NCBI GenBank assembly: GCA_965202625.1
Contig: CBDBBI010000010.1
Location: forward strand, 192,001-256,000
DNA: 64,000 nt
Reading direction: 5' to 3'
Source of the DNA: a bacterium
GTDB lineage: Bacteria; UBA8248
Under the pieces are notes generated by a model that made no database searches, was not told the origin of the DNA, and saw only the letters and a program-made list of their open reading frames with translations. The translations under genes and the position numbers were made by a program. Positions 6,561 to 9,185 of the stretch are shown piece by piece (the stretch's first letter is position 1; each line of letters starts with the position of its first letter).

Positions 6561-9185
6561 ATGTCATTCACTCCAATAAAAAAAATGATGGATCGCGTTC
6601 GAACCAATGGAAATGCCTCCGATTACGAGCTGTTTCACAAGCTTCTTTACGCAGGCGAATTTATAGCAAAAATAACCATTGCAGCCTTTGTCGCCTTGAT
6701 TGACGACGATCGAGACAACCATCGCTACAGGTGCGAGCATAGGCTCGTGAGAGCGGATGGAATTGGAGAGTGGGCAAAAAGCATTTCTGAAATCTGTACC
6801 GGACCAACATCGCAACACCTCTCTCCTTCGATTCGGGACGCACAGCGTGTTTTCACAGAACGAGTCGGAAAAGGAAAAGATAAGTGGCAATATGAAGTCG
6901 TAGAAACCGTGCACGAAGTTTTGTCTGATATTAATCGTGATACTTCCCCGATAGAAAAAAAAGTCAGACTTCTCGCTTGGTTCATGAAGTTTGTTGAACT
7001 GCGGAATAAAACCCGGGGTCATGGGGCACCCACAACCACTAAGTGCAAGAAACTTGTCCCGAAACTTCAAAGATCGATTGAGTTGCTGATTGCCAATAAT
7101 CCTTTCTTTAACCTGCCATGGGCTTATCTTCATCGAAATCTTTCAGGAAAATATAGAGTTGTTACGCTTGGGGGTGATGAATCTCATTTTTCGGAATTAA
7201 AGACCGCCGCGGCCTTAAAAGGAGAGAAAAAAGGAGAGAATTATCCAGATGGCATTTATTTGTGGGTCGAAAAACCAAGAGCAGTTTCTCTTCTGAAAAG
7301 CGATCCTGATACTACCGACTTCTTTGTTCCGAATGGTGCGTTCAATGGAAGAAAAAGAACCTACGAACTCCACTCACCCATTACCGACGATCGCAGCAAA
7401 GGAGACGCGAATCTGTATCTTAAACCCCCGTCGAACAGGCCGCCTAGTGAAACAGAAGGGTTGGGGGAGCTAGACATTATTGGAAAAGTATTTACTAACC
7501 TGCCAGCAGCTCCGGTCGGTTACGTTAGGCGTCCCCAGCTCGAAGAGGAAGTAAGGGATAAATTCATCAATGACCGTCATTCGATTGTGACACTTGTTGG
7601 TCGCGGTGGCATCGGCAAGACATCACTTGCGCTCATCGTATTGCATGAAATCGCTAAAACGGACCTATACGCAGTGATAGTTTGGTTTAGCGCGAGAGAC
7701 ATTGACTTAACTGAAACCGGTCCCAAGGTCGTTAAACCCAAGACTTTAACCGCAAAGGATATTGAAGAAGAATATAGAGATTTGGTTACCCCACTTGGTT
7801 CTGATTTCAGCAACGGTAATATGTCAAAACATATGCACGAGTCTCCGCACGGTGGTCCGATATTATTCGTTTTTGACAATTTTGAAACAGTCCGCCCTCC
7901 GATTGATATTTACAACTGGATCGATATGAACATCAGACTGCCGAACAAGGCCGTCATCACTACGCGTTACCGAGATTTCAAAGCTGATTTCCCCATTGAA
8001 GTATCCGGCATGGAGTATAATGAGGCGAAGGAACTCATTGAGCAAACTGCCAAGAAGCTTAACATTGAAGGAATAGTTGGCACTGAACAAATTGATCAAG
8101 TCATTGAAGGTTCAAACAGACACCCATATGTGATCAAGATTATTCTTGGAGAAATGGCGGATAGCCGTGAATTCAGTAAACCGAAAAGGGTGTTGGCCCG
8201 TAAAAACGATATTTTGGACGCTTTGTTCGAGCGAACCTATAGCAATTTGTCCCCACTTGCGAATCGTATTTTCCTTACCCTCAGTGGATGGCGATCTCTT
8301 GTGCCCCAGCTTGCGGTGGAGGCTGTGCTCCATTGGCGCAATTCGAATGAAGATGTTGATCCAGAAGCAGCGATCGATGAACTTGTACGTATGTCTTTAA
8401 TTGAACGAACAGTAGCAGAGGACGAAACCGATTTTCTTGGGGTGCCGATTACAGCAGCATTGTTCGGCAGCAAGAAGCTTGAAGTTAGCCCCTCTCATGA
8501 GTTGATTCGAAATGACATCCAGTTTCTGCGATATTTTGGACCCACGGCCACTATTAATTTGAACAAAGGTAGTTATCCGCGTATTCAATCTATTTTTAAG
8601 AAAATCTCTAATCAGATCAGCGAGAAAAGCGTTTCTTTGGAAGAAATGCGACCAATGCTGGAGTTCATAGCAAAACATTACCATCAAGCTTGGTTGCTAT
8701 TTGCTGATCTTGAGAACGAGGCAGGCGATGAACCGGAAAATGAAGCTGAATATATTCAACGTTTTCTTGAACAGAGTCCATCCAGTGAAGAAGCCCATAA
8801 GGCATGGATGCGCCTCGTTTCCCTCTACCGCACAATGGGTGGCGTCGATGGTGTTGTTGGAAGCTGTAGTGCTTTCTTAAGTGCTGCTAAGATTTTAGAG
8901 CCGGACATTGATGATGTCAGCCGCATGGCAAATTATGTGAACAGCGATCGAGAAATCATTGATGGGATGGATGCTGACCAACGTAGCGCATTGCTAAAGC
9001 CACTTGCATCTCTTATGGAAAAACATCGGCAAAGTCTTTCTGCGACCGATTTGTCGCGGCTTGCATGGTTGTATCTTCACTCAGGAGAAAAAGAATGTGC
9101 GCGCCATCTGGCAGAATTAGGTTTAGAAAAAGATCCAGATAATGCGCATTGTCAGCGTCTTTATGAGAGGCTGAAATTAGAATAA
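6561..9185 (+). CDS. STAND/NB-ARC NTPase with N-terminal putative effector domain (HEPN-like motif) and C-terminal helical/TPR-like region
   Basis: Walker [10 protein letters not shown], Walker [10 protein letters not shown], sensor-1 VITTR, YV.R motif upstream of Walker [11 protein letters not shown] in the N-terminus; TPR-like C-terminus (LAWLYL..G....AR..AE.GL..DPDN). Clearly AT-richer than host genes. Confidence 0.85.

Follow-up and report, generated by a model that had tools for sequence, protein, structure and literature searches.

A horizontally acquired STAND NTPase gene with a HEPN-like N-terminal domain, a candidate single-gene antiviral sensor in a UBA8248 bacterium

What is a solitary, AT-rich gene for a large NTPase doing among the housekeeping genes of a much more GC-rich stretch of bacterial DNA? 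This question is raised by an 874-residue open reading frame (ORF) at positions 6561-9185 (+) of a 64,000-nucleotide stretch of contig CBDBBI010000010.1 (assembly GCA_965202625.1, lineage UBA8248), which we analyzed at its full length and refer to as the window. A preliminary description, made from the sequence alone, had proposed that the ORF encodes an antiphage protein of the NLR-like kind, in which a STAND NTPase is joined to an N-terminal domain with the catalytic motif of HEPN RNases. The answer we favor, at a probability of roughly 0.6, is that the gene is a horizontally acquired, single-gene antiviral STAND of the Avs-like and NLR-like type, whose product would oligomerize to switch on an RNase. 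Below we ask what the protein is built of, whether its N-terminal module is likely to be a HEPN domain, and what its genomic surroundings say about its function.

An intact gene of foreign composition with an NB-ARC core

The ORF runs without interruption by stop codons and is a single intact gene. Its GC content is 0.446, against 0.592 and 0.614 in the two flanks and 0.607 in the whole window, and its GC at third codon positions (GC3) is 0.417, with values of 0.70-0.83 in four neighboring genes. The region immediately upstream (6340-6560) is similarly AT-rich, with a GC of 0.421, and carries a Shine-Dalgarno-like hexamer, AGAGGA, at 6546-6551, 9 nt 5' of the ATG. The earlier observation of an AT-rich leader and of a gene far below its host in GC was therefore accurate. 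A scan of positions 6200-9500 for promoter and terminator consensus sites found them no more often than in shuffled sequence, so the scan lends no support to a promoter belonging to the gene itself. The foreign GC and GC3, together with the finding that just 1 of 22 same-genus genomes carries the gene (see below), uphold the proposal of horizontal acquisition, and we conclude that the gene is real, intact, and horizontally acquired. The features of the gene are as follows.

6340-6560 (+): AT-rich upstream region with the ribosome-binding-like AGAGGA
6561-9185 (+): whole ORF, 874 aa; HEPN-like and beta domain, NB-ARC NTPase, TPR-like C-terminus
6561-7118 (+): N-terminal helical domain, HEPN-like, residues 1-186
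6657-6671 (+): E33-x3-K37 in helix 2, HEPN-type second acidic residue
7002-7022 (+): Rx5H motif, R148-N149-x4-H154
7119-7415 (+): beta-rich subdomain of seven strands, residues 187-285, with conserved S195, Y198, Y233 and N258
7440-7460 (+): nearly invariant linker motif P294-P-S-E-T-E-G300, from the N-terminal module to the NTPase
7536-8000 (+): nucleotide-binding domain (NBD), residues 326-480, identified by Pfam NB-ARC, invariant motifs and fold matches
7599-7622 (+): Walker A, GRGGIGKT, residues 347-354
7863-7886 (+): Walker B, LFVFDNFE, residues 435-442
7956-7967 (+): sensor-1, ITTR, residues 466-469
8016-8441 (+): helical ARC-like domain (residues 486-535) and winged-helix-like domain (residues 541-627)
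8448-9179 (+): C-terminal TPR-like repeats, residues 630-873, about 12 helices, identified by TPR_14/TPR_19, AlphaFold2 and Foldseek; presumed sensor

Does the protein have the three-part layout that the preliminary description assigned to it? Residues 329-539 match the Pfam NB-ARC model (PF00931; E 6.8e-7) with 29.2 bits, above the model's cut-off of 23.5. TPR_14 aligns to residues 709-751 at 22.7 bits, slightly under its cut-off of 23.5, TPR_19 is also matched, and homologues carry recorded TPR Pfam families. Pfam NACHT reaches 22.4 bits, which is below both its own cut-off of 26.7 and the NB-ARC score, so that by Pfam the protein lacks the NACHT-type NTPase module of the bNACHT proteins. 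Scans of the full 874 residues with NCBIfam returned nothing meaningful, and PADLOC-DB v2.0.0 returned no Avs model at E<=1, in keeping with the earlier statement that this is not a named Avs type; the three PADLOC matches that did appear (TRIP13, PD-T4-6 and REase_MTase_IIG) are marginal and non-Avs, at E 0.014-0.031.

A full-length AlphaFold2 model (41-sequence alignment; predicted local distance difference test score, pLDDT, 84.2; predicted template modeling score, pTM, 0.59) places a helical region at residues 1-186, a seven-stranded beta region at 187-285, a linker, an alpha/beta NBD at 326-480, a helical domain at 486-535, a winged-helix-like domain at 541-627, and about 12 helices at 630-873. 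When compared with the Protein Data Bank (PDB) by Foldseek, this model had 225 matching chains at E<=0.001. An archaeal STAND-TPR protein (6mfv, E 6.4e-11) came first, ahead of Apaf-1, CED-4, plant NLR resistosomes, SAMD9 and an Avs5 filament; the top entries were 6mfv, 1z6t, 5juy, 8jo0 and 9ria. The protein shares with 6mfv, Apaf-1, CED-4 and the plant resistosomes the same NBD-helical-winged-helix core fold and motifs, with Foldseek E-values of 6e-11 to 1e-6 over 360-630 aligned columns, at an identity of only 11-18%. Those solved STANDs carry CARD, coiled-coil or TIR effectors or none, their eukaryotic members have WD40 or LRR sensors, and none of them has the N-terminal module found here.

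The Walker A sequence GRGGIGKTS lies at residues 347-355, with its first nucleotide at 7599, exactly where it had been reported; Walker B (LFVFD, residues 435-439) and the sensor-1 TTR (467-469) follow. Among 41 homologues, G347, G349, G350, G352, K353, T354, D439 and R469 are invariant, as is H521-P522-Y523, a GxP-type motif in the helical domain. Pfam, the motifs and the NBD-helical-winged-helix fold thus all place the protein in the AP-ATPase/NB-ARC clade. From the Pfam match above its cut-off, the modeled N-terminal module and TPR-like C-terminal helices, the Foldseek matches and the invariant motifs we conclude that the layout is tripartite and that the core of the protein belongs to the AP-ATPase/NB-ARC class of STANDs. 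Sequence conservation differs along the chain: the C-terminal TPR-like part is the least conserved (mean identity to the window protein 0.50), while in the linker P294 is kept in 245/255 sequences, S296 in 246/255 and T298 in 246/252, and G300 is invariant in alignments A1 and A2. The linker lies in a low-confidence, probably flexible stretch of the model, and could serve docking, cleavage or modification.

The N-terminal module and the case for a HEPN fold

We then asked whether the N-terminal module, with its R-N-x4-H motif, is a HEPN domain. R148 and H154 are encoded from nucleotides 7002 and 7020, within residues 140-155, as first described. Both residues are present in 269 of 269 family sequences, N149 is present in 268, and the spacing of five residues from R to H is kept in 266. 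This degree of conservation argues that the motif is not a chance match, and it substantiates the expectation that homologues would retain it. The AlphaFold2 model of the N-terminal module alone (pLDDT 92.5, pTM 0.90) has four main helices, at residues 4-19, 21-45, 138-150 and 159-179, with five short helices (54-124) between the second and the third. In two AlphaFold2 models R148 and N149 are predicted to close helix 138-150, with H154 in the next turn and the last helix at 159-179. Helix 2 contributes a second conserved pair, E33-F-I-A-K37, in which all 258 covered sequences have E33 and all 262 have K or R at position 37.

According to the available part of Anantharaman et al. 2013 (PMC3710099), the hallmarks of HEPN domains are an Rx4-6H motif with a polar residue (N/D/H) after the R, an Ex3[KR] motif in helix 2, and inserts between helices 2 and 3. 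The module has the Rx4-6H motif with its polar residue, placed at the end of a helix, as well as the helix-2 Ex3[KR] and the insert between helices 2 and 3. A structural search of 48,161 representative chains points in the same direction: of the top 50 rows, at least 10 can be recognized as HEPN proteins from their titles or papers (8xdj, 1wwp, 1jog, 5yep, 6y2r, 7ae2, 5hy3, 2hsb, 4rgp and 8jbc). They include the toxins 8xdj, 5yep and 7ae2, HI0074 (1jog), RnlA, LsoA and two Csm6 proteins. Two further rows of that top 50 are Roquin, which we take to be HEPN. The same list also contains DinB-like bundles (1rxq, 3dka, 2oqm, 8f5v and 5wk0), rhodopsins and designed proteins.

Several searches speak against placing the module among HEPN domains. 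The N-terminal module is matched by no Pfam, NCBIfam, PADLOC or PHROGs model. Among 24 family members, none matched Pfam HepT-like (PF01934), HEPN (PF05168) or Abi_2 (PF07751) at E<=10, and none matched PHROGs. A profile search of PDB sequences with the module gave two chance-level rows only (E 0.84 and 1.7), and Foldseek found nothing at E<=0.001 for the N-terminal model in the PDB or BFVD. Profile-profile alignment with hhalign, against alignments that we built from genomes for HepT-like (A4), PF05168 (A5) and Abi_2 (A6), gave probabilities of 0.7%, 0.3% and 0.08%, respectively. HEPN proteins are nonetheless frequent in the structural list described above.

Some results carry little weight either way. 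The one stretch aligned with Abi_2 sets W-F-x2-F-x2-L-R-N-...-H-G on W-L-x2-L-x2-I-R-N-...-H-G, so that locally the motif (W-x2-h-x3-h-R-N-...-H-G) is like the catalytic stretch of Abi_2; at E 0.64 this alignment is not significant and is not evidence, and the family differs from Abi_2 in its R-to-H spacing, which is five residues here and four in nine Abi_2 sequences, as well as in the absent PF07751 matches and the hhalign result above. The ESM Atlas returned unnamed clusters only, at 0.83-0.90, and an RnlA-toxin_DBD cluster (11% of members) at 0.76 is a lead only. A predicted homodimer of two copies of residues 1-290 scored 0.00 without controls, and counts neither way.

Could the protein instead be a defense STAND whose N-terminal module is some other effector, or an adaptor? 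It might be an enzyme acting on nucleotides or NAD, might bind membranes or proteins, or might recruit a host factor, with the conserved R, N, H and E serving another chemistry or binding a ligand. The lack of any significant profile or fold match to HEPN would fit such a module, as would the DinB-like four-helix bundles in the structural list and the near-invariant polar residues of the beta subdomain (S195, Y198, Y233 and N258), which the fold searches barely covered. Against it stand the four independent descriptive hallmarks of HEPN, all of them present, and the Abi_2 alignment, which though not significant puts RN...HG on the catalytic RN...HHG. A DinB-like metal enzyme was considered and dropped, as DinB-type metal sites require several histidines and H154 is the only invariant one. 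We regard a head that is not an RNase as unlikely. The HEPN fold itself we consider likely, and we think it probable, with somewhat less assurance, that the domain is an active RNase. If confirmed, the module would define a HEPN family without a Pfam model.

A cargo-swapping slot, the neighborhoods of homologues, and their spread

How did the gene come to lie where it does? Homology between the window and 22 same-genus genomes ends at about 6240, the stop codon of the EamA gene, and restarts at 9249. The segment in between is variable.

6243-9248 (no strand): variable low-GC segment from the EamA gene to the amidohydrolase-like gene; GC 0.452, against 0.59-0.61

The block of cytochrome and EamA genes upstream is present in all 22 same-genus genomes, and the STAND gene is present in one of them. 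None of 18 further relatives carries it, with one distant NB-ARC match (27% identity) among them. The single same-genus copy (locus L001 of genome G001, 10001-12588) occupies the same site, directly after EamA. Its DNA identity to the window gene is 72.8%, with 77.8-81.5% in the flanks, and the downstream flank in G001 is rearranged, having been inverted and moved upstream. From this it seems that either the STAND gene evolves faster or it was captured independently in the same slot.

We inspected the 6.1 kb downstream of EamA in ten same-genus genomes (L127-L136), which held the following.

G020: GmrSD type IV restriction enzyme
G002: AAA_15/AAA_21/DUF3696 ATPase and GmrSD_N protein
G007: AAA_15/DUF3696 ATPase
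G004: Rv0623-like antitoxin, DUF4268, AAA_15/DUF3696 ATPase
G006: PIN/antitoxin pair, NotI endonuclease, D12 methylase
G014: DUF4268 and AAA_15/DUF3696 ATPase, 3.7-6 kb from EamA
G012: two integrases
G008, G022 and G010: nothing recognizable as defense

Defense or toxin-antitoxin (TA) genes, VapBC-like pairs among them, thus follow EamA in 6 of the 10 genomes and integrases in 1, with nothing recognizable in the other 3. In G020, G002, G004, G006 and G007 the amidohydrolase and/or TauE flank returns after 2.4-4.5 kb of cargo. Because sister genomes hold defense and TA genes at this position, we conclude that the STAND gene occupies a slot in which defense cargo is exchanged, and this hotspot is the strongest contextual evidence for its function. 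No convincing flanking direct or inverted (att-like) repeats were found around the window segment, and the 64,000-nt window contains no tRNA gene.

In 80 homologous loci the STAND family itself is present in 77, and the next commonest neighbor family in 8. Since no neighbor family is conserved, the STAND gene is a single-gene unit.

Are the homologues also associated with defense? In 25 loci, Pfam assignments of the three genes on either side gave defense-type genes in 9, TA genes only in 7, mobile-element genes only in 3 and none of these in 6 (19/25 in total with a match). The defense genes in the nine loci belong to type I and type ISP restriction-modification (R-M) systems, SIR2, OLD-family ATPase-TOPRIM proteins, AbiV, Schlafen/AlbA_2 and DNA methylases; the three loci with mobile-element genes alone have transposases, integrases or a phage portal gene. 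PADLOC models, applied to another 25 loci, matched at E<=1e-8 in 10 of them and in 19 of 150 proteins, under names that include REase_II, Vsr, DrmC, mREase_IV, SoFic, PDC-S02, PDC-M34A and mad3. As an imperfect control we used the 53 other ORFs of the window, of which 6 matched at the same threshold. Four of these belong to a genuine type I R-M/PDC-M23 island at a distance of 35 kb; the other two are weak, generic matches (an HNH protein and a ComF-like protein). With a background of about 4% per gene, a match would already be expected in about 22% of loci, and one was observed in 40%. The available part of Lee et al. 2026 (PMC13581612) puts the chance that a random gene lies within 5 kb of a DefenseFinder system at 1.53%, which is a stricter, system-level measure than the per-gene PADLOC matches used here. 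Read against this imperfect control, the defense association of homologues that the preliminary description anticipated is present, in 19 of 25 loci by Pfam and 10 of 25 by PADLOC.

Two of these neighborhoods are of interest in their own right. In a Dehalococcoidia genome (L024, 8103-9545) the homologue directly follows a phage portal gene and may be prophage-borne. In another locus (L025, 1151-8399 and 13168-15815) the homologue is surrounded by a dense defense island, with a type ISP R-M gene and a 1,324-aa SIR2_2 protein on one side and an AAA/DUF6414 pair on the other.

The family is large and its architecture is fixed. Of 8,000 candidates that a word-indexed search scored, at least 2,393 proteins had E<=0.001. 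The top 119 range from 746 to 971 aa in length (median 867) and align with 84-100% of the query at 50-77% identity; the only names given in the sources are "NB-ARC domain-containing protein" and "hypothetical protein". A HMMER search with residues 1-310 alone found 585 cluster representatives (50% identity) at E<=0.001. Of the best 150 of these, 85 are 820-935 aa long, 63 are shorter, many of them probably contig-end fragments, and 2 are longer; 8 of 9 off-size matches checked have an NB-ARC domain. One of the long ones has a transposase-type helix-turn-helix (HTH) in front, which may be a merged gene call. From the size classes and the NB-ARC domains we conclude that the N-terminal module occurs only together with an NB-ARC NTPase, and that the effector is fixed and not swapped, unlike in several Avs families.

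In a collection of one genome per species (185,579 species genomes) we found 223 stretches with a relative. Relatives are patchily spread over Alpha-, Beta- and Gammaproteobacteria, Acidobacteriota, Chloroflexota, Bacteroidota, Actinomycetota, Planctomycetota, Verrucomicrobiota and others. Seven Ralstonia solanacearum megaplasmids carry full-length homologues at 39% identity (for example NC_017575.1, 128244-130853; L081), two of the seven matches being split into two pieces; the plasmid table has no annotated feature under any match in the plasmid records.

The closer neighbors of the window gene are upstream aroA, a small HNH protein, a NapC/NirT-type cytochrome and the EamA transporter, and downstream a frameshifted amidohydrolase-like gene, two TauE genes and acetyl-CoA synthetases. 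The amidohydrolase-like gene (9261-10274, -) matches its intact same-genus orthologue only over three reading frames and so has at least two frameshifts, which make it a pseudogene unless they come from an indel error in the assembly. The HNH endonuclease gene (4174-4539, -; 121 aa), two genes upstream of the STAND gene, has a weak ZorE-like PADLOC match (E 1.7e-10). A two-gene system of the two was considered and dropped, since the HNH gene is conserved with its flank in sister genomes that lack the STAND gene, and it is probably unrelated. The window's own defense island (42838-53007, +) is a PADLOC candidate system, PDC-M23A/B, embedded inside a type I R-M operon.

42838-44409 (+): hsdM
44402-45688 (+): hsdS
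45685-46482 (+): first gene of PDC-M23A/B
46479-49814 (+): second gene of PDC-M23A/B, a 1,111-aa DEAD-box helicase that also matches Hachiman HamB models
49849-53007 (+): hsdR

How the protein might act and what it would add

If the protein is an antiviral STAND of this kind, how would it work? In the resting state the NB-ARC NTPase would hold the protein monomeric and inactive. A trigger that arises during infection, most probably a phage protein, would be bound by the short TPR-like array at the C-terminus, and nucleotide-dependent oligomerization would then gather the N-terminal HEPN-like domains. In HEPN RNases, among them the RNase L, Csm6 and Cas13 families, it generally takes two domains to form the R/H site. 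Once gathered, the domains would complete a metal-independent RNase site from R148, N149, H154 and E33, and the RNase would cleave cellular and/or phage RNA, halting the infection through growth arrest or cell death. The notion of a single-gene NLR-like sensor, which the preliminary description put forward, draws support from the layout, the invariant motifs, the lack of a partner gene and the hotspot.

Part of the evidence does not fit so easily. The copy in the window sits among housekeeping genes, and no relative of the family was found among 50,697 phage records. The presumed repeat sensor is short, at about 245 aa, and an identity of 50-77% across phyla is unusually high for an immune sensor. 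These observations, like the negative hhalign comparisons and the PADLOC background rate, weigh against the reading that we favor. In particular, the short sensor and the high cross-phylum identity fit less well with the recognition of fast-evolving phage proteins, and leave room for a conserved trigger that is possibly not a protein or is derived from the host. The family could then be a distinct, "frozen" bacterial NLR, built of a HEPN-like head with a beta barrel, the PPSETEG linker, the NB-ARC core and a TPR sensor both unusually short and well conserved, that senses a conserved small ligand, a nucleic-acid species or a host danger signal. A guard- or metabolite-type trigger of this sort would explain both the identity across phyla and the absence of effector swapping; we consider it a doubtful alternative.

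Less probable again, in our view, is a conflict gene that acts for or against mobile elements other than phages, as a plasmid-exclusion, addiction or selfish module. Many neighbors of the homologues are TA modules, transposases or integrases rather than classical defense genes, homologues lie on the Ralstonia megaplasmids, and the family is more strongly conserved, and more fixed in its architecture, than is typical of arms-race sensors, all of which such a gene would account for. It is at odds with the finding that the gene moves alone, without an antitoxin-like partner, and with the hotspot, in which the STAND gene alternates with restriction systems. In addition, the effector-NOD-repeat layout (NOD, nucleotide-binding oligomerization domain) has repeatedly been shown to sense phage proteins, as far as the available part of Lee et al. 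2026 (PMC13581612) goes. A non-defense STAND regulator in the manner of MalT, AfsR or GutR, or an RNA-processing factor on variable DNA, is very improbable. In its favor, STAND clades with and without a defense association are intermingled (Lee et al. 2026, PMC13581612, available part), the title of the best fold match (6mfv) names no function, and the window copy has housekeeping neighbors. Against it, the 874-aa protein has no DNA-binding or HTH Pfam domain at E<=1, its absence from 21 of 22 same-genus genomes means that it has no core function, its composition is foreign, and sister genomes carry restriction and TA genes in the same slot.

How, then, does the antiviral STAND that we favor relate to known systems? 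With the Avs/AVAST proteins (Avs1-5, and Avs7-21 of Lee et al. 2026, PMC13581612) it has in common the arrangement of effector, STAND and repeat sensor in one polypeptide without a partner gene, the location in defense islands or hotspots (for the homologues, against an imperfect control), the patchy spread suggestive of horizontal gene transfer, and an expected trigger-induced oligomerization. It differs in matching no PADLOC Avs model, in its fixed effector and in the strong conservation of the whole protein across phyla. In the available part of Lee et al. 2026 (PMC13581612), 589 STAND NTPase clades are scored, and their 90 sensor clusters need at least 400 aa after the NTPase domain. Only 335 aa (residues 540-874) follow the NB-ARC match here, so the length rule probably excluded the family from those 90 clusters. 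In seven supplementary files of that study, neither the names of five organisms nor "HEPN" gave a match.

HEPN domains have been linked to STAND modules before. In the available part of Anantharaman et al. 2013 (PMC3710099), Table 1 has "STAND-ATPase, TPR, S1" fusions of AbiD/F-like HEPN domains, in which, as here, a single protein has a HEPN-type head, a STAND ATPase and TPRs. HEPN also appears among the bNACHT effectors in what is available of Kibby et al., and fused, as effector modules, to an inactive STAND module in what is available of Kaur et al. 2021. Among HEPN RNases, the protein probably resembles RNase L/Ire1 KEN, Csm6, Cas13, HepT, ApeA and HepS in having a composite R/H site that is activated by pairing, and abortive-infection-type cleavage of RNA is a probable further likeness. 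The difference would lie in the activator, here a STAND NTPase and not a kinase-like domain, CARF, a CRISPR RNA or an antitoxin, and no membership in the RNase L/Ire1, Csm6, Cas13, HepT, ApeA or HepS families was detected. As HEPN-STAND-TPR fusions have been known since 2013, the gene is best read as a further member of the antiviral STAND class and not as something categorically new.

What would such a member mean? If confirmed, it would extend the repertoire of antiviral STANDs by a widespread single-gene NLR-like family, one that PADLOC v2, having no model for it, does not recognize as a defense gene. Its fixed architecture of 874 aa would also, if confirmed, be a compact system in which to study how a NOD switch activates an RNase, and its short, conserved sensor raises the question of what trigger is sensed. 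Finally, the hotspot next to EamA is a small natural experiment in the swapping of defense genes within a genus.

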